From Shigella phage SH7: DNA of 64,000 nt. The stretch lies in the sequence record KX828711; one strand, given 5' to 3'. Numbering within the stretch: the stretch's first letter is position 1; every line of letters begins with the position of its first letter. Made by a program: the position numbers and the translations under genes. The notes under the pieces were generated by a model. It worked only from the letters and a program-made list of their open reading frames with translations. It had not been told where the DNA came from and ran no database searches. Below, piece after piece: positions 10,299-21,467 of this stretch.

Positions 10299-10619
10299 TT
10301 ATAGCGTAATCCATTCTCGTACTGTCTGAGTTACTACACGTTCTCGAAGCTCAACCAGTTCAACAGTAGGAACTGCATAATACCAGTCAGAATGGTAAGA
10401 ACCTGAGCGAGATTCATTTACAGCCACATGAACGTTATGTTTTGGACTAAAATAAACACACTGACGATATTGACATTTACCATCTTGCACCCAGTCTTCT
10501 ATTTCGATAGGTTTAAGATAGTCGGAAAAATCGAAATCATAGTTTTCCGAAAATGCATCATGGTCTTCAATGATTTCGCTCAGAACTGCATCAACATCTA
10601 ATTTATTTTCAGTATTCAT
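10299..10619 (-). CDS. hypothetical acidic protein
   Basis: 106-aa ORF, no recognised motif. Confidence 0.5.
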   Translation of the reverse strand: MNTENKLDVDAVLSEIIEDHDAFSENYDFDFSDYLKPIEIEDWVQDGKCQYRQCVYFSPKHNVHVAVNESRSGSYHSDWYYAVPTVELVELRERVVTQTVREWITL

Positions 10620-11825: not shown

Positions 11826-12751
11826 TTCAATACCTCAATAGCATTACGTAAACCATTTGCTTTTGCATTAAGAGCTTTTAACAATTTGGTGTGTTCTGCA
11901 ATCTGGGCTTCAACTTCAACCAGTCGAGATTTGAGATATTCGCGTTCTTCGCTCAAGTTATCAACCTTTTCTACTTTAGGTTCTTTTACAACTGGCTTAT
12001 ACGTATTAGGGTCCTTCAGTTTAATTAGAATGCGTGAACTGTATAACATTGAACCATTATCTTCGGTTTCATCATACATTTCTACTACGTCCATAATTTT
12101 TAACATCATGCGAAGTTTATAAGACAACGAACGAATAGTTTTGTTGTGCTTATTAATTTCTCTAGCTGTCATGGTGCCGAGATTACGTGAGTAATAATAA
12201 GGAACCTGGATATTAATTAATACTGATGAACCACCCGGCTTGTGTGTTACTTCATCAGCAATAACCCAGTCCTTAACATGAACTGTATTTGTACGGTCAT
12301 CGCCTGCGGTAAATAGTTTACGAGCATGCTTAAAAAGCATATTCACTTGGTCATTGAATTGACAAGCGAATTTATCAGCAAATTTAGTTTCAGGAATGGT
12401 AGATAACCAATCAGCCAAATGGGTCTTTTTAACATCGTTAACAATAGTAAATTCAACCAAATCGGTTATAGATGTCGCAGATTTAATGAAGCTCGGCTTC
12501 ATAAAGTTTTCAATGTTATCACGAGCTACAGTAGAAGATAACATACGAGAACGTTTAAACCATTCAAGCAAATTGCCTAACGAATGAGAATAAGCGTTCT
12601 GTGTATCTTTACAGATATGATTTTCCTGGCCAACATATTGAAGGAAATCACGAAGAATATTATTGATTACTGCTCTGTGTCCGATCTGATAATTACGGTG
12701 TTTAGTAATAAGACTGTCAAAATAATCAATATAATGTTTACGAGTTTTCAT
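11822..12751 (-). CDS. coiled-coil-tailed protein, paralog family member 1
   Basis: 309 aa; C-terminal heptad-rich tail; shares NMLFKHARKLFTAGD-type block with the next three genes. Confidence 0.65.
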   Translation of the reverse strand: MKTRKHYIDYFDSLITKHRNYQIGHRAVINNILRDFLQYVGQENHICKDTQNAYSHSLGNLLEWFKRSRMLSSTVARDNIENFMKPSFIKSATSITDLVEFTIVNDVKKTHLADWLSTIPETKFADKFACQFNDQVNMLFKHARKLFTAGDDRTNTVHVKDWVIADEVTHKPGGSSVLINIQVPYYYSRNLGTMTAREINKHNKTIRSLSYKLRMMLKIMDVVEMYDETEDNGSMLYSSRILIKLKDPNTYKPVVKEPKVEKVDNLSEEREYLKSRLVEVEAQIAEHTKLLKALNAKANGLRNAIEVLK

Positions 12752-16783: not shown

Positions 16784-16811
16784 TTTGTGTTCCTCCGTAG
16801 TTGATAGTTGT

Positions 16812-16841
16812 ATAGTACCACAGAGGAACGGTCTTGTAAAC
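16812..16841 (-). promoter_or_regulatory. early-type promoter (GTTTACA..17 nt..TACTAT)
   Basis: Reverse complement GTTTACAagaccgttcctctgtggTACTAT upstream of the 16256-16783 gene. Confidence 0.6.
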
Positions 16842-16843
16842 AA

Positions 16844-17158
16844 CTAAAAGAAACTTCTTTCACAATTTTTTCCACTGAACCACGCACTCACTGCTTTCTT
16901 AGTCTCAGGAGCAGTGTTATCCATAAACCATTCAAAGGCAGCCTTTTTATGATTCTGGAGGGCTTCTCGGGCTTTAATCTGCTCACGGTCTATTAACACT
17001 AACATATGAGCCTTTCTTGTCACCAGGGGCTTCTTATGATTTTTTGAATACTCCCAATCATTTGTCCATCGCATCGTTGTTGCGAATTGAAGTACAGCTT
17101 CCTTAATCTTAGTTTCGTAAATTTCACGAGCCTTTGAGTATAACATCACTACCTCCAT
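16844..17158 (-). CDS. hypothetical protein
   Basis: 104-aa ORF between the ATPase gene and the downstream promoter. Confidence 0.5.
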   Translation of the reverse strand: MEVVMLYSKAREIYETKIKEAVLQFATTMRWTNDWEYSKNHKKPLVTRKAHMLVLIDREQIKAREALQNHKKAAFEWFMDNTAPETKKAVSAWFSGKNCERSFF

Positions 17159-17247
17159 TTACCAGTTTAATTCTAATCATCTTTTTGATGGCAGTCCATA
17201 TAATCTATTTCTGAACTGCCTTTTTGTCATAGAAGGCCTCTTATGAA

Positions 17248-18216
17248 TTATTTCAGAAGAGTAACCTCAGCAATTTCTTCCCAACCGTTTTTGTCGGTCA
17301 TAATAAAGTCAGCAAGATAAAGTGCAGTACGCAGTGAAACATTGCGTAAACGATTAACATTAACTTTCATCCATGATAATGCTTTATAAGTTTCTTCATC
17401 AGAAAGACCACGTTTTTGCATCATGTCAGTTGAAAGAATAACATCTTCAACCCTGACCATAATTTCTTCATTAGTGTGAACACCCAAATCTAAATAAACT
17501 GAGCGGGACACTAATGCTTGTAAATGTGGAGCAAGTTTAGTACCACGGTCTAATTCGCGGTCAATGTCAACGTTTGTGATAAAAACAATCGTTCCTTTAA
17601 ATTCAAACTCACGCTCAATGCCTTTTTCTTCTAAGTAAGAAGATGCGGTGCTCCAGCAGACTTTACGGGTCTCTCCAGTGTCCAGAGCAGCTTTCAGAAG
17701 ATTAAGAATGTCCATATCAGAGAAAACATCCACATCATCAATCAAAAGGACAGAATTCTCTTCACGATTATTCCAAAGCTGTTCATAAAGACCGATACCA
17801 GAGATTTTACCATTAATGCTTTTATACTCAATGTATCCAATATCATTTGCTTTATTTAAAGCTTTATCTAAAGAATACGTTTTACCAATACCTGCTGCTC
17901 CCGAGATAATTAATGAACGAATGTTTCCGTTAATAATACCATTCGTCATCATTCCCATAACATTAAATCTTTTATTAATGCGGGTTTTCATATCTTCATA
18001 CGATTCTTTAACTTCTTCAACTTTTACACCATCATATGAAATGTCTGATTTGTAAACCCAAACACCGCGACGTTTACCGTCAATTTCAACAAAAACTTTA
18101 CCATCTCCTTGTGCATCTACCGGAGCATTATCTGGGAACCATTCGCCTAAGAGCTCAAAAGTTCCAGAGATTTCTTTACCGAAGTAGATACCCTTATTGA
18201 TAGTTACAGTTTTCAT
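17248..18216 (-). CDS. P-loop (AAA+-like) ATPase
   Basis: 322 aa; Walker A GAAGIGKT, Walker B VLLIDDVD, sensor-like IVFITN. Confidence 0.7.
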   Translation of the reverse strand: MKTVTINKGIYFGKEISGTFELLGEWFPDNAPVDAQGDGKVFVEIDGKRRGVWVYKSDISYDGVKVEEVKESYEDMKTRINKRFNVMGMMTNGIINGNIRSLIISGAAGIGKTYSLDKALNKANDIGYIEYKSINGKISGIGLYEQLWNNREENSVLLIDDVDVFSDMDILNLLKAALDTGETRKVCWSTASSYLEEKGIEREFEFKGTIVFITNVDIDRELDRGTKLAPHLQALVSRSVYLDLGVHTNEEIMVRVEDVILSTDMMQKRGLSDEETYKALSWMKVNVNRLRNVSLRTALYLADFIMTDKNGWEEIAEVTLLK

Positions 18217-18243
18217 TTTATTCTCCTTTGATTTGATAGGACT

Positions 18244-18273
18244 ACTATAACATAGTCCTATCAGTTTGTATAC
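18244..18273 (-). promoter_or_regulatory. early-type promoter with -10 inside a 9-bp inverted repeat
   Basis: Reverse complement GTATAC..18 nt..TATAGT; arms GATAGGACT/AGTCCTATC (18236-18262) bracket the -10. Confidence 0.45.
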
Positions 18274-18474
18274 TTATTTTGACATTTCTTCGATGTCACG
18301 ACGATACCCGTCACGAACTTCACGAAGAGCTTCAAGGCCACACATAGGCTCGATACCTGTAATGTGAACTTGATTAATCTGATACTCTACATCTTCTAAC
18401 TGAGCGAAAACATAACGACGTTCAGCTGCACAACCAGATTTAGCTTTACCGAAACGTTTATTCAAAGTAGTCAT
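18274..18474 (-). CDS. hypothetical small protein
   Basis: 66-aa ORF preceded by an early-type promoter. Confidence 0.45.
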   Translation of the reverse strand: MTTLNKRFGKAKSGCAAERRYVFAQLEDVEYQINQVHITGIEPMCGLEALREVRDGYRRDIEEMSK

Positions 18475-18512
18475 TTTGTATCTCCAATTTACTCATTTGT
18501 TTTGATAGGTCT

Positions 18513-18542
18513 ATAGTATCAACAACTACAGACCATGTAAAC
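18513..18542 (-). promoter_or_regulatory. early-type promoter (GTTTAC..TACTAT)
   Basis: Reverse complement GTTTAC..18 nt..TACTAT, immediately downstream of the 18573-18590 terminator. Confidence 0.55.
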
Positions 18543-18572
18543 CGTTTTGTGAAAAATTTTTGAAATAAAAAA

Positions 18573-18590
18573 GGGAGCCCGAAGGCTCCC
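18573..18590 (-). terminator. rho-independent terminator with UUCG tetraloop
   Basis: GGGAGCC-CGAA-GGCTCCC flanked by an A-run; on the minus strand a hairpin followed by UUUUUUAUUU. Confidence 0.75.
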
Positions 18591-18592
18591 TA

Positions 18593-19606
18593 TCATTTAT
18601 AATAACTTCGATGGTTTTCAAGATAGACCTTCTCAAGGAAGTCATCCCAAAAACCCATGTCCACTTTTTGCTGCATACCGTTCTTAGAAGCTTCAGTAGA
18701 TGCTGCTTCTACTTGATCGACCACATCTTCCAAAAACTCTTGAACGGTTTTAAATGGATGTTTACCCAACTTCACGTCGAGAATAAATGGAGCATCTTGG
18801 AGTGGATAAACCAAGTCACCAGTTTTGTAAATTTCCAATAGTTGAAGTCCACCACGACAGGCATGGCTCAGAGCTTTCCAGTCAATGCCTTCGTTGGCTT
18901 CGGCCTTACGAGCACGTTCACCATATTCAGCATCTAATTTGTTCAGTGACTGCTTAAGCTCAATAAGAGAAAGCGTTGTCTGATATTTACGACCCAACAC
19001 AGTGTAAAACGTTTGTGGGCCTGTTTTCTCATGATTATGGAACACCCATTCACAGAATTCGTTTTCTGGAAGACGATGCTTAATATCTTCAACTTTGGTG
19101 TGACGCTGCTTAATAGAACCATCTTCTTGGTAATCAATCCACTGCTCAGGGATTTGATTAACTATTTTCAATACATCGCGTAATGCAGCCAAACGAGAAC
19201 CCTTGACACCGTATTTAGAAGCTTGCTTGCGAACATATCCTAAATAGGATTTCATGTTAGTCGTATAAAAACGAGAACGGTTGTCTTGAATAAACTTCCA
19301 CACATCAGGCAAATCAGATTTAACCACTAGTTCAGGTGGAGTGTGAAGCATATCCAATGCTACAGTTTCACCATCTGCTGCTAATTTAAAGAAATATTTA
19401 AGACTGTATAGTTCATGGTCAATATCATCTTTAGTGTTTTTAGATGATGTGTTGTTAGTGTTTTTACTCATGTGCTCTTTAACATTTCCAATAAGAATAT
19501 CACGAGCAGGAGGAACAAAAATTTCTTTAAAATCTACATCAGATTCTGGGGTAGAAGTTCCATAAAGATGACTACCAAAATAGCTTTTCATTACTGTTTT
19601 CATCAT
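18593..19606 (-). CDS. Pol-beta-superfamily nucleotidyltransferase-like protein
   Basis: 337 aa; N-terminal hG[GS]..(10)..DhD signature FGSHLYGTSTPESDVDF; substrate unknown. Confidence 0.6.
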   Translation of the reverse strand: MMKTVMKSYFGSHLYGTSTPESDVDFKEIFVPPARDILIGNVKEHMSKNTNNTSSKNTKDDIDHELYSLKYFFKLAADGETVALDMLHTPPELVVKSDLPDVWKFIQDNRSRFYTTNMKSYLGYVRKQASKYGVKGSRLAALRDVLKIVNQIPEQWIDYQEDGSIKQRHTKVEDIKHRLPENEFCEWVFHNHEKTGPQTFYTVLGRKYQTTLSLIELKQSLNKLDAEYGERARKAEANEGIDWKALSHACRGGLQLLEIYKTGDLVYPLQDAPFILDVKLGKHPFKTVQEFLEDVVDQVEAASTEASKNGMQQKVDMGFWDDFLEKVYLENHRSYYK

Positions 19607-20064
19607 TCAGCCTTATATTCAATAACAGGACATACTTTAGCTTTACGAGATTTTAAAAATTCAACGATAATCGATTTCTTGGGTTGAATAGGAGGTAAAC
19701 CTTTATACGCTCTATCAATATTTTCTACGTGTAAAGCATAATCCTTTTTCCATTTATAATCTTTATATTTTTCACGCAAATGTGCAGGAATAACAAATGA
19801 ACCGATAATAAGTAAAACAACCAAAAGCGCAAGTATAAATGCTGATGGAAGCAAAGTCCATAAACTACCAAAAATAAGCCAACGTTGTAGGCTTTCTGCA
19901 CAAATAATTGTTAGCCCTACGAGTATAGCACATCCAAAAATAGAAACGAAAAATGTAGGAATGGCAATAGACCAAAAATATGCGCATAGTGTCTTAGGTC
20001 GTTGCCATTCATCGTTAAACAATTTGAATAATTTATAGTGCCAAGAGTTTTCATTAATAATCAT
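19603..20064 (-). CDS. membrane protein (2-3 TM)
   Basis: 153 aa with long hydrophobic segments; 4-nt overlap with the nucleotidyltransferase gene start. Confidence 0.6.
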   Translation of the reverse strand: MIINENSWHYKLFKLFNDEWQRPKTLCAYFWSIAIPTFFVSIFGCAILVGLTIICAESLQRWLIFGSLWTLLPSAFILALLVVLLIIGSFVIPAHLREKYKDYKWKKDYALHVENIDRAYKGLPPIQPKKSIIVEFLKSRKAKVCPVIEYKAE

Positions 20065-20066
20065 AA

Positions 20067-20588
20067 TTATCCTTTCATTGAAGGCGTAACAGTTGTTAAA
20101 TACTTAATCATAGCTTCAGCTTCTGATTTTGATAATGAAATTTCTCCATTGTTTTGACGAATAGAAATAAAATCCGGATGACGGTCACCACCAGCTTTTA
20201 AAACACACATATAAGTATCAACTTCATCTTCAATATTTGAAATGATTGAAGCAGTTCCACATGAATGCGGTTTTTGATAAATCAATGCAGCTTTTCTTCC
20301 GCCATTTGACTGTTCATAAACTTTTAATACATCAAACAAATCACTTCTTTTATCAATAGCTAAAATGTTATTTTCATCTTCAATGTTAAATCCTTCGGAT
20401 ACTTCATAAAGTGTCACCCATAAATCGCCAATATCAATAACAGCGTTCACTTTTCCATGACTTTCAAGAGCATGACAAATTTTCTTGATTTCGTCATAAC
20501 TCATTTTAATAATATCATCTCCTTGAATAAGAAAGATGTCATTTTTAAATTCAACACGAATTAAACCACTTCCACTTGAAATAAACAT
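20067..20588 (-). CDS. hypothetical protein, tandem paralog A
   Basis: 173 aa; shares GFNIE and C-terminal KxYLxxVxPxM blocks with the next gene. Confidence 0.6.
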   Translation of the reverse strand: MFISSGSGLIRVEFKNDIFLIQGDDIIKMSYDEIKKICHALESHGKVNAVIDIGDLWVTLYEVSEGFNIEDENNILAIDKRSDLFDVLKVYEQSNGGRKAALIYQKPHSCGTASIISNIEDEVDTYMCVLKAGGDRHPDFISIRQNNGEISLSKSEAEAMIKYLTTVTPSMKG

Positions 20589-20594
20589 ATTTCC

Positions 20595-21140
20595 TCACTT
20601 TGAAATCATAGTTGGAATGACAGAATCAAGATAAGTCTTTAGTGCAATAGCTTCGTCTTTGGTAAATGTGACAATATGTGCTCGAAAATCATCAATTTGA
20701 CGAATAGTTAAGACATCTCCATCTTCATAACATTTTGATACGTTTAAAACAGTTTCATCATTCTGATCGCAAGCGTTAGTAATAATAGCATTGCAATTTT
20801 TAAACCATTTTAAACTATGTTTTCTTTCATTAGAATAATAAAAATATTTAATCTTATCTATAAAACTATCCCAATGGATAACTGATAAGCATATTGACTC
20901 GCTTTCAATATTAAATCCTGGGCATGAAGAATAAAAATGAATTTTATGCTCATCATTAATGCTTACAATTTTATCAGTATAAGGATTTTCAATTTTGGTT
21001 AAATGAATGATTTCACTAGGCGTAAAATACAGCATATCGTCTTCTTGTGTCAAACGATACATATTATTTACTTTTTCTATAGCCAATTCACCAAAAAGTG
21101 AACTAACTTCTAATACTAATCGTTTCGCCGCTACCGTCAT
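20595..21140 (-). CDS. hypothetical protein, tandem paralog B
   Basis: 181 aa; paralog of 20067-20588. Confidence 0.6.
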   Translation of the reverse strand: MTVAAKRLVLEVSSLFGELAIEKVNNMYRLTQEDDMLYFTPSEIIHLTKIENPYTDKIVSINDEHKIHFYSSCPGFNIESESICLSVIHWDSFIDKIKYFYYSNERKHSLKWFKNCNAIITNACDQNDETVLNVSKCYEDGDVLTIRQIDDFRAHIVTFTKDEAIALKTYLDSVIPTMISK

Positions 21141-21272
21141 TACATACTCCTCTGAATCATATCAATAATGTTGTTCACCAGATTATAAGTAAACATTGGG
21201 TAATTATATTGAATCACCACATACACAACAAACAAAACTTTCATTCTCTTCTCCTTGGCAGTTGACAAGATT

Positions 21273-21302
21273 ACTATACCATAACCTTGCCAACTTGTAA
21301 AC
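21273..21302 (-). promoter_or_regulatory. early-type promoter (GTTTACA..TATAGT)
   Basis: Reverse complement GTTTACAagttggcaaggttatggTATAGT; flanked by imperfect inverted repeat TTGGCAG/TTGCCAA. Confidence 0.55.
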
Positions 21303-21467
21303 CATTAAATGACGTTTTCGATAAAATTCTGAAGCTTTGTATGAGCATCAACCATGATTTTCATTTCTTCCTTTGCGAAAGCTGTACCTCTTTCACGAGA
21401 AGAACATTCATAGTCAGAAACTGCATTAGCATATTCTTCAATTAGCTTCATTAAAAACATCTGCTTT

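Follow-up and report, generated by a model that had tools for sequence, protein, structure and literature searches.

The 337-aa protein encoded by Shigella phage SH7 at 18593-19606 is, as judged from its sequence, the ortholog of T4 NrdC.11 and a long-form RlaP (PF10127) nucleotidyltransferase (NTase) of the Pol-beta type. On balance, we lean towards the proposal that this RlaP enzyme mends cut tRNA for counter-defense, and that its gene neighbors function separately from it. The locus was studied within a window of 64,000 nucleotides of SH7 DNA (sequence record KX828711). The finding is real but already known, as the region holds near-identical copies of the T4 genes nrdC.10 and nrdC.11, accompanied by a small membrane gene that is variable. 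No new concept was added, because others have already linked RlaP to RloC (Iyer et al. 2021; Carruthers et al. 2025, citing Burroughs and Aravind).

Organization and transcription of the locus

The SH7 window was assigned to a Tequatrovirus, and the locus was syntenic with that of T4. The four open reading frames were located at 17248-18216, 18274-18474, 18593-19606 and 19603-20064, exactly as the first-pass annotation had placed them. The following features were recorded:

17248..18216, minus strand, NrdC.10 ortholog, AAA+ ATPase, 322 aa
18233..18264, no strand assigned, hairpin (12-bp stem) in the gap from orf66 to the ATPase, marking the right-hand edge of the inserted cassette
18274..18474, minus strand, orf66, 66 aa (phrog_6200), on an inserted cassette, not in T4
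18513..18542, minus strand, T4 early-type promoter, GTTTACA-17-TACTAT, with TG ahead of the -10 element (sequence scan)
18572..18591, minus strand, intrinsic terminator, AGGGAGCC-TTCG-GGCTCCCT followed by a T-run, right after the NTase stop codon
18593..19606, minus strand, NrdC.11 ortholog, long-form RlaP (PF10127) NTase by sequence, 337 aa
19603..20064, minus strand, small membrane protein, 153 aa, its stop overlapping the NTase start (ATGA) (hydropathy; phrog_944 'membrane protein', phrog_22816)
20067..21140, minus strand, tandem pair of y05I/MobD.1-like genes (181 aa and 173 aa), preceding the membrane ORF in the predicted unit of the NTase (Pfam T4_y05I_N/C, E 1e-21 to 1e-38)
21273..21302, minus strand, T4 early-type promoter-like site, GTTTACA-17-TATAGT (regex scan, consensus match only)

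The predicted order of transcription was membrane ORF, NTase, terminator, promoter, orf66 and ATPase. This is the reverse of the order narrated earlier, because every gene lies on the minus strand. Hence, the statement that the NTase follows the small ORF and has a promoter of its own was incorrect. The promoter at 18542-18513 is positioned downstream of the NTase and of the strong terminator at 18591-18572, therefore it serves orf66 and the ATPase and not the NTase. The terminator was common to T4 and its relatives in the alignment, and together with the promoter at 18513..18542 it forms, by its sequence features, a PeSL-type element (PMC2839356, PMC4122927). The promoter-like site at 21273..21302 is the probable start of a unit containing the two y05I-like genes, the membrane ORF and the NTase. 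The 4-nt overlap of the last two was confirmed at GAATGATGAAA, where the TGA stop codon of the membrane ORF lies over the first ATG of the NTase. The tandem y05I-like genes were regarded as the context of the NTase and not as a part of the enzyme; T4 possesses a single mobD.1. Of the loci that were compared, only L002 and L003 carried orf66.

Three T4 early-type promoters were detected on the minus strand by a regex scan, and no MotA-box middle promoters were found by a sequence scan of 16800-21400. Both observations are consistent with the earlier description of these genes as early. The description of them as one block was weakened: the ORFs stood as reported, but the conserved terminator and promoter split the NTase from the ATPase, and the two genes were unlinked in distant phages.

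Identity and structure of the nucleotidyltransferase

The 337-aa protein was identical to T4 NrdC.11 (NP_049709) at 327 of 336 positions (97%). It matched PF10127 with 44.1 bits (E 2.7e-11) against a gathering score of 23 bits, residues 7-135 being aligned to profile positions 23-142 of 249; the alignment ended at residue 135 because of an insertion. The close NrdC.11 homologs were all precomputed as PF10127 members, and the protein matched phrog_388 'nucleotidyltransferase' at 1.7e-136. NrdC.11 was present in 1503 records and was widespread in Straboviridae. The first-pass annotation did not recognize the known T4 genes nrdC.10 and nrdC.11, while all three of its domain calls, namely an AAA+-like ATPase, a Pol-beta-type NTase and a membrane protein, were right.

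The NTase domain covered approximately residues 1-135 and contained G11-S12, D23, D25 and a KNTKDDxD loop at 56-63 that included D63. A beta-rich insertion (approximately residues 150-236) followed, and then a helical domain with a DWKAxSHAxR motif. The previously reported motifs FGSHLYG at 10 and SDVDF at 22 were verified and were invariant in the family alignments. Residues G11, S12, D23, D25, D61 and D63 were invariant across 32 phage sequences (29-84% identity). D63 was invariant in all sampled clades, canonical RlaP included, and opened the beta-strand 62-68 in the structure model (pLDDT 87.7), which also contained a helical C-terminal domain. The Pol-beta catalytic signature was complete, consisting of hG[GS], DxD and a third acidic residue (D63) on the neighboring strand. 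Position 85, occupied by D or E, was also conserved; D85 was tried as the third catalytic carboxylate and was replaced by D63, as position 85 is located in a helix and the invariant D63 on a strand.

The T4 clade differed from canonical RlaP by about 100 inserted residues and by the KNTKDDxD loop that canonical members lack, therefore its specificity could be different. The DWKAxSHAxR motif resembled the canonical GYDxK..H..RL at the level of the motifs.

No solved RlaP was found in the PDB by a single sequence or two profiles, the troponin matches being noise, and a PfRlaP crystal structure was not found among the PDB entries searched by sequence, profile and fold. The best fold match of the NTase was Hailong HalB, and it was weak (Foldseek E 6.8e-3, TM 0.26-0.39, 14-15% identity), level with those of kanamycin NTase and 3c18.

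Further, the protein was compared with the CD-NTase, MNT, CCA-adding and AbiEii families, as had been recommended, and every such assignment failed. The CD-NTases (cGAS/DncV-like, CBASS) had neither profile nor fold support (fold probability 0.13), MNT/MntA (NF047752) reached 13.2 bits against a cut-off of 60, and no PADLOC AbiE match was obtained for an AbiEii-type assignment. The CCA-adding enzymes and poly(A) polymerases gave no Pfam match and a Foldseek probability of 0.04 for 3h3a. Membership in the aminoglycoside NTases had no profile or fold support.

The AAA+ ATPase and the membrane protein

The 322-aa protein was identical to T4 NrdC.10 (NP_049708) at 314 of 316 positions (99%). An N-terminal beta domain (1-61), an AAA+ core (73-243) and a helical lid (249-320) were distinguished, with Walker A at 106-113, Walker B residues D160/D161, N215 and R238 in the core. 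The motifs GAAGIGKT at residue 106 and LLIDDVD at 157 were present as annotated and were invariant in the family alignments. The core has an alpha-beta-alpha architecture with Walker A, Walker B, sensor-1 and an arginine, and the helical lid comes after it; the NrdC.10 ortholog is a true AAA+ fold. None of the cut-offs of the curated AAA+ families (AAA_14, AAA_22, nSTAND, Hda, clamp loader) was reached: the scores were 23.5 against 27 for AAA_14, still less for the other Pfam families, and 14.7 against 194.8 for Hda, and the PHROG clamp-loader families gave E values of about 1e-4. A fold ranking against the clamp-loader, initiator and MoxR groups (RFC, Hda/DnaA, Cdc6/ORC, NorQ/CbbQ, MCM) singled out no clade; in contrast to these groups, NrdC.10 has a distinct N-terminal beta domain.

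NrdC.10 was found in 1310 records and was widespread in Straboviridae. In distant phages, 40 of 72 ATPase loci had a UvsW-type helicase gene downstream, and this conserved company weakly points to DNA or nucleoprotein transactions for NrdC.10. A 166-aa protein encoded after UvsW in the distant ATPase loci was considered as gp55; it had no similarity to it and belonged to phrog_11279. The ATPase was absent from all 47 loci in which the NTase had less than 50% identity, and the NTase was absent from 72 of the 73 distant ATPase loci. NrdC.10 is probably a separately transcribed AAA+ ATPase that is not a part of the machine of the NTase.

The hydropathy profile of the 153-aa ORF showed two long hydrophobic segments, at residues 29-60 and at 62-98, therefore a membrane protein with 2-4 helices is plausible. 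The ORF was present in 849 phage records. In the enterobacterial T4-likes it accompanied the NTase at 23 of 26 loci, and such linkage was restricted to these phages. The ORF was found neither in the T4 region, where its slot is occupied by the mobD homing endonuclease, nor in any of the 47 loci whose NTase had less than 50% identity. In view of the 23/26 linkage and the start-codon overlap, the two genes may be functionally tied. The membrane ORF is probably an early gene that is restricted to one lineage and replaceable; it shares a predicted transcript with the NTase, and its product is probably not a part of the NTase machine.

Gene neighborhoods of NTase relatives

In the SH7 window and in T4, the neighbors of NrdC.11 were y05I-like genes and the AAA+ ATPase, with the membrane ORF in SH7; no RNA ligase or pseT/rnlA was among them. 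In other phages, the relatives were found within RNA-repair cassettes. One locus encoded Pnkp, the NTase and Rnl1 (L054), another an HD-kinase, a 112-aa ORF, Rnl1 and the NTase (L033), and two more contained Rnl1 (L034) and an Rnl2-like ligase (L058). An AAA_5 ATPase beside the NTase in L032 was considered as an NrdC.10 relative and was rejected, as it did not match the NrdC.10 profile.

RNA-repair-type neighbors were found in 31 of 72 cellular NTase loci. Canonical RlaP was encoded in 21, RtcB in 6, and a kinase-phosphoesterase-Rnl1 fusion, Ro60 and HD proteins in 4 each; a ligase, Pnkp or Ro60 was within 5 kb of the NTase in only 12 of the 72. The cellular long-form RlaP genes often directly preceded canonical RlaP, with RtcB, Ro60 and Pnkp genes nearby. 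Taken as genomic context, these neighborhoods support a predicted tRNA-repair, counter-defense role for NrdC.11.

The pseT gene was carried by Tequatrovirus genomes. A search for T4 rnlA using the ligase from L054 retrieved 240 records and no Tequatrovirus, the query being too diverged; hence, the presence of Rnl1 in T4 was taken from the literature.

It had been suggested beforehand that the NTase could modify host tRNA or RNA or act in counter-defense, and this alternative was supported by PF10127/RlaP membership and by the RNA-repair neighborhoods of relatives. The competing suggestion of a signaling module was not sustained, as the protein had no CD-NTase similarity and no PADLOC match, and the NTase-membrane pair was confined to the enterobacterial T4-likes. 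The opinion that the enzymatic activity cannot be read from the sequence was too pessimistic, because the family of the NTase has a biochemically characterized activity.

Proposed function of NrdC.11

The T4 Pnk and Rnl1 pathway is the founding case of RNA repair as a viral counter-defense. Nucleases of the RloC type were proposed in 2008-2012 to beat Pnk/Rnl1 by excising the wobble nucleotide. Such excision is expected to defeat T4 repair (PMC3458546), and RlaP was predicted to put back the nucleotides lost to RloC (PMC7824862). The activity of RlaP has been characterized for two enzymes only, those of Pseudomonas fluorescens and P. aeruginosa, which add 1-2 NMP to an RNA 3'-OH with a preference for Mn2+, favor damaged tRNA and are inactive on DNA or protein (bioRxiv 10.64898/2025.12.29.696909). 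In vitro, they showed little NTP or RNA specificity, labeling rRNA-sized and tRNA-sized species, and among tRNA ends they preferred the 3' end of the 5' half to the acceptor end. In the same 2025 preprint, T4 NrdC.11 was listed as an RlaP member of unknown function, and the T4 clade formed an SSN cluster separate from Pseudomonas RlaP (bioRxiv 10.64898/2025.12.29.696909). T4 was viable with an nrdC.11-mobD.3 deletion (PMC9825161), therefore no phenotype is seen in laboratory conditions.

The analysis showed to which family NrdC.11 belongs, that its catalytic residues are conserved, what fold it has and that its relatives lie in RNA-repair contexts. We infer the activity, substrate and in vivo role of the SH7 protein itself. 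NrdC.11 would use NTPs, probably with Mn2+, by means of the acidic triad D23, D25 and D63, and would add one or two nucleotides, untemplated, to the 3'-OH of a broken RNA. In the infected cell, it would act between the end-healing Pnk and the 5'-phosphate RNA ligase Rnl1, replacing the nucleotide excised by a host RloC-type anticodon nuclease. Ligation by Rnl1 would then regenerate a usable tRNA, and this would be the counter-defense step.

It is possible, and we consider it unlikely, that NrdC.11 is an RNA 3'-end NTase with a purpose other than anticodon-loop repair, such as 3'-CCA mending, RNA tailing for stability or end capping against exonucleases. The low specificity of the family in vitro, with the labeling of both rRNA-sized and tRNA-sized species, agrees with such a role, as do the absence of linkage between nrdC.11 and ligase genes in T4-likes and the clade-specific insertion and KNTKDDxD loop, which could confer a new specificity. 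However, the relatives repeatedly adjoined RNA ligases and end-healing enzymes rather than decay factors, and the preference of Pseudomonas RlaP for the 3' end of the 5' half argues for anticodon-loop repair. It is far less to be expected that NrdC.11 transfers nucleotides to a small molecule or a protein instead of RNA, as aminoglycoside NTases or MNT/AMPylating enzymes do. Kanamycin, lincosamide and streptomycin NTases, DrrA and GlnE were among its fold matches, and these and the HEPN-like helical C-terminal domain are compatible with such an activity.

Two further explanations involve the gene neighbors. A two-component machine, in which the AAA+ protein would, for example, remodel or deliver the RNA substrate of the NTase, seems very unlikely. 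In the enterobacterial T4-likes, 19 of 26 loci had the two genes side by side, as did the seven closest of the ATPase loci (L076-L082), and both are widespread in Straboviridae. However, a conserved terminator and promoter separate them, seven close loci hold the NTase without the ATPase, and in distant phages no partner was found within 6-8 kb, the two being 39 kb apart on one contig (L027, L084). In addition, the NrdC.10 profile matched nothing near phage NTases (even at E <= 10) or cellular NTases. The ATPase was rejected as a partner of the NTase on the grounds of the two-way co-occurrence and the conserved terminator and promoter. The least probable explanation is that the NTase and the membrane protein constitute a pair related to Hailong, a system in which oligo-dA made by the NTase HalB gates the membrane channel HalA and keeps it closed. 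As a phage-borne copy of that system, NrdC.11 would make an oligonucleotide, protein-primed or free, that gates the membrane protein; as an anti-Hailong enzyme, it would resupply the HalA inhibitor. The HalB fold match was weak and on a par with those of kanamycin NTase and 3c18, no HalB sequence similarity was found even at E <= 10, and there was no PADLOC match. Moreover, the NTase is retained in T4, which lacks the membrane ORF, and no recurrent membrane partner was found at 72 cellular or 47 distant phage homologs, where RNA-repair genes were present instead. HalA also has a large cytoplasmic crown, whereas the 153-aa ORF has no large cytoplasmic domain.

The proposal that long-form RlaP is a distinct subfamily, paired with canonical RlaP in cells and serving in T4 as the missing third tRNA-repair enzyme that defeats RloC, is better supported than the Hailong-like reading. 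If NrdC.11 restores the excised nucleotide, T4 already holds an answer to RloC, and an old prediction becomes testable. The additions made here are modest: a long-form RlaP clade with its own insertion and KNTKDDxD loop, its cellular tandem with canonical RlaP, and the observation that the ATPase and the membrane ORF are not conserved partners.

Comparison with known systems

In T4, the gene order, the orientation and the terminator-promoter element between nrdC.11 and nrdC.10 are the same as in SH7. T4 differs in having mobD in place of the 153-aa membrane ORF, no orf66 cassette, and one y05I-like gene instead of two. In the T4 reference, the C-terminus of NrdC.10 is frameshifted and one base of nrdC.11 is ambiguous.

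Hailong HalB (PDB 9dbh, 9dbj), the best structural neighbor, is likewise a minimal NTase with an N-terminal DxD followed by a helical region and with an adjoining membrane-protein gene. However, HalB is a tetrameric 217-aa protein and a Tyr-primed poly-dA maker, that is, a DNA-synthesizing defense NTase, to which NrdC.11 has no detectable sequence similarity. The relatives of NrdC.11 occur in RNA-repair contexts without a conserved membrane partner.

Pseudomonas RlaP shares with NrdC.11 the Pfam family, the acidic triad, relatives tied to RNA ligases and, as far as the structure model of NrdC.11 indicates, the layout of an N-terminal NTase and a helical domain. Proteins of the T4 clade exceed it in length by about 70-90 residues and contain the beta-rich insertion and the KNTKDDxD loop. 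In T4-likes the gene is not beside a ligase, and the activity of the phage enzyme is a predicted one.

The T4 tRNA repair system (Pnk/PseT and Rnl1 against PrrC) is similar in that tRNA cuts inflicted by the host are mended, and NrdC.11 homologs are located inside such cassettes in L054 and L033. NrdC.11, a putative participant, would add to this system the replacement of a nucleotide, which is needed only against nucleotide-excising nucleases.

Organization of the locus

All four ORFs that the first-pass annotation had placed in this region of phage SH7 were found at exactly the coordinates claimed, and their strand was corrected to minus. In the order of transcription they were as follows.

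20064 to 19603, minus strand: membrane ORF, 153 aa
19606 to 18593, minus strand: nucleotidyltransferase (NTase), 337 aa
18474 to 18274, minus strand: orf66, 66 aa
18216 to 17248, minus strand: AAA+ ATPase, 322 aa

The TGA stop codon of the membrane ORF overlapped the first ATG of the NTase gene, as had been noted, and the motifs quoted previously were present and invariant in the family alignments. The original observation was confirmed after correction of its promoter and strand assignments, and its interpretation was supported in part.

The NTase and ATPase genes are the known T4 genes nrdC.11 and nrdC.10. According to the T4 reference annotation, 327 of 336 residues were identical between the NTase and NrdC.11, and 314 of 316 between the ATPase and NrdC.10. 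The region was flanked by rI, rI.-1, tk, nrdC.9, nrdC.8 and nrdC.7 in synteny with T4, and the position of gp55 agreed with that predicted from the T4 map. The G+C content of the window was ~35%. The 3.7-kb stretch around the finding matched 772 phage records, with a best identity of 98.6% (Tequatrovirus BCH953P4 and Citrobacter phage PhiZZ23).

Several irregularities were observed in public records. The T4 reference (L001) carried an additional base close to the 3' end of nrdC.10 (10344-10400; GCTACGGGTTAC versus GCTGAGGTTAC in the window), which replaced the family-wide C-terminus AEVTLLK by another tail, and an ambiguous base N in nrdC.11 (12125-12160); these were either sequencing errors or strain-specific changes. 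In GenBank and UniRef, the NrdC.10 and NrdC.11 homologues were widely mislabelled "thioredoxin", apparently after the nrdC locus name. One NTase homologue was entered as a "putative HNH homing endonuclease" and the T6 copy of the membrane ORF as a "prohead core protein". The commonest public ATPase call was 377 aa long (protein cluster P0121, with 246 members and 100% identity across the 322 residues); its 55-residue N-terminal extension relative to the ORF called here probably reflects an overextended prediction that reaches the orf66 region.

The stop codon of the NTase gene was directly followed by a strong intrinsic terminator (AGGGAGCC-TTCG-GGCTCCCT plus a T-run), and then by a T4 early-type promoter (GTTTACA-17-TACTAT). 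The alignment showed this terminator-promoter element to be kept base for base in T4 and its relatives. Because of this order, the promoter serves orf66 and the ATPase rather than the NTase, to which it had earlier been assigned. The NTase is the last gene of a predicted upstream unit, in which it is preceded by the membrane ORF and two y05I-like genes; this unit probably starts at another early-type promoter at 21302. The promoter scan around the locus found no MotA boxes. The two y05I/MobD.1 "putative transcription factor" paralogues (173 and 181 aa) lay in tandem at 20067-21140, where T4 has one.

One boundary of the inserted orf66 cassette (18217-18592) was a repeated copy of the early promoter (GTTTACA...TACTATAGACCTATCAA), and the other a hairpin of 12 bp. 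It was missing from T4 and the phage locus L026, and two cassettes occupied the same place in L003. This pattern fits the promoter/stem-loop (PeSL) shuffling published for T4-type phages (PMC2839356, PMC4122927).

Conserved residues of the NTase

NrdC.11 matched the RNA 3'-nucleotidyltransferase family RlaP (PF10127) with 44.1 bits, above the Pfam gathering score of 23, as well as phrog_388, "nucleotidyltransferase". Among 32 phage homologues (29-84% identity), the residues G11, S12, S22, D23, D25, N57, T58, D61, D63, Q128, G136, R138, G229, R231, K244, H248 and R251 were invariant. D23, D25 and D63 were taken as the putative catalytic triad, since D63 was also invariant in the canonical RlaP clades and began a beta-strand in the AlphaFold model (pLDDT 87.7). 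Position 85 was D or E and helical in the model.

The T4 clade was a long form of RlaP with a highly conserved KNTKDDxD loop (residues 56-63, window 19418-19441) that ranked with the best-conserved segments in the phage clades. It was nevertheless the one part of the model with low confidence (residues 53-60, pLDDT below 50) and was modelled as flexible; it may be mobile and bind substrate or metal. About 100 residues were inserted ahead of the conserved DWKAxSHAxR motif, so that the Pfam alignment ended at residue 135. This motif is probably the counterpart of the canonical GYDxK..H..RL.

Gene neighbourhoods of NTase relatives

Loci with NTase homologues were fetched (73 viral, 80 cellular), and neighbours were identified in 28 non-redundant distant phage loci and 72 cellular loci. 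The phage neighbours included T4-type Rnl1 ligases, an Rnl2-like ligase, a Pnkp of T4 type and an HD-kinase; the gene order was Pnkp, NTase, Rnl1 in L054 and HD-kinase, 112-aa ORF, Rnl1, NTase in L033. An RNA-repair-type neighbour occurred within 5 kb in 31 of the 72 cellular loci. A canonical full-length RlaP lay immediately downstream of the NTase in 18 of them (21 by iterative search), RtcB was nearby in six, and a kinase-metallophosphoesterase-Rnl1 fusion, Ro60 and HD proteins in four each. The end-healing gene pseT is present in Tequatrovirus genomes. This context supports an RNA-repair role of the NTase independently of the Pfam name.

The same-strand pairs of a long-form and then a canonical RlaP (PF10127, E 4e-73), seen among L156-L235 (e.g. 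L208 5001-6777), suggest a two-paralogue arrangement, of which no description was found in the literature searched. In L044 (1492-3519), an NrdC.11 homologue was directly 5' of the anti-Gabija gene Gad1 (PF25705, E 1.9e-69), which made this an anti-defence neighbourhood. In L032 (4557-5663), an NrdC.11 homologue was preceded by an AAA_5 (MoxR/dynein-type) ATPase, with a 100-aa ORF in between; the NrdC.10 profile detected no relation to this ATPase.

The ATPase adjoined the NTase in 19 of 26 viral-contig loci with an NTase at least 62% identical and was missing in seven; beside more distant NTases it was absent in 47/47 viral loci. The NrdC.10 profile had no match beside phage and cellular NTases. 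The ATPase family was large (at least 575 viral stretches), and the reverse search found the NTase next door only in the seven closest ATPase loci; it was absent from 72 of 73 distant ones. The 183-kb contig IMGVR_UViG_3300045988_066415 carried homologues of NrdC.11 (49% identity, L027) and NrdC.10 (55%, L084) ~39 kb apart, hence the two can share a genome unlinked. A UvsW-type helicase followed the NrdC.10-type ATPase by one to four genes in 40/72 distant viral loci (L083-L155, e.g. L129 7629-9086). In 32 loci a 166-aa protein (phrog_11279) was present as well; it showed no similarity to gp55 and is not that protein.

The membrane ORF and the Hailong alternative

The membrane ORF contained two long hydrophobic stretches. 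Of 26 enterobacterial T4-like loci, 23 carried it together with the NTase; often it was the gene immediately upstream, and sometimes it was displaced 0.4-2.3 kb by inserted DNA. Its copies in most enterobacterial T4-likes were diverged (26-50% identity). It was absent from T4 and all distant phage loci compared; the slot upstream of nrdC.11 that it fills in the window (19603-20064) is occupied in T4 by the HNH homing endonuclease mobD (L001 12430-13209). It was present in 849 phage records versus 1503 for the NTase. Since these genomes are collinear by descent, the synteny shows co-expression at most.

The earlier suggestion of a module formed by the NTase and a membrane protein was weighed as a real hypothesis, because the top structural match of the NTase was HalB of the Hailong defence system, whose effector HalA is a membrane channel. 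A 2026 review describes HalB as a homotetramer making Tyr-primed poly-dA, and HalA as a tetrameric channel that bears a crown on its cytoplasmic side. However, the fold scores were weak, comparable to those of kanamycin NTase, and the sequence search gave no signal between the NTase and HalB. No membrane partner recurred among NTase relatives, whose gene context was RNA repair. A Hailong-related pair was therefore considered improbable, failing on most counts.

Relation to published RlaP enzymes

The RNA-repair reading agrees with earlier work. NrdC.11 has been placed in COG3541 since 2006 (PMC1524935), and T4 NrdC.11 was assigned to SSN cluster 5 of the RlaP family in December 2025 (bioRxiv 10.64898/2025.12.29.696909). 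In the same study, two Pseudomonas RlaP enzymes put one or two NMPs on the RNA 3'-OH, preferred Mn2+ and damaged tRNA, and were inactive on DNA and protein; RlaP pre-treatment improved aminoacylation of tRNA repaired after nucleotide loss. The family, likely activity and proposed role of the NTase had hence appeared in the literature before.

In a comparative study of jumbo phages, the distribution of RlaP mirrored that of RNA ligases, and RlaP was predicted to put back the nucleotides removed by the anticodon nuclease RloC prior to ligation (PMC7824862). Wobble-nucleotide excision by RloC has been proposed to frustrate the T4 repair enzymes (PMC3458546), and T4 with nrdC.11-mobD.3 deleted is viable (PMC9825161). 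A direct test of this RloC counter-repair hypothesis is possible in T4, and the main interest of the locus lies there.
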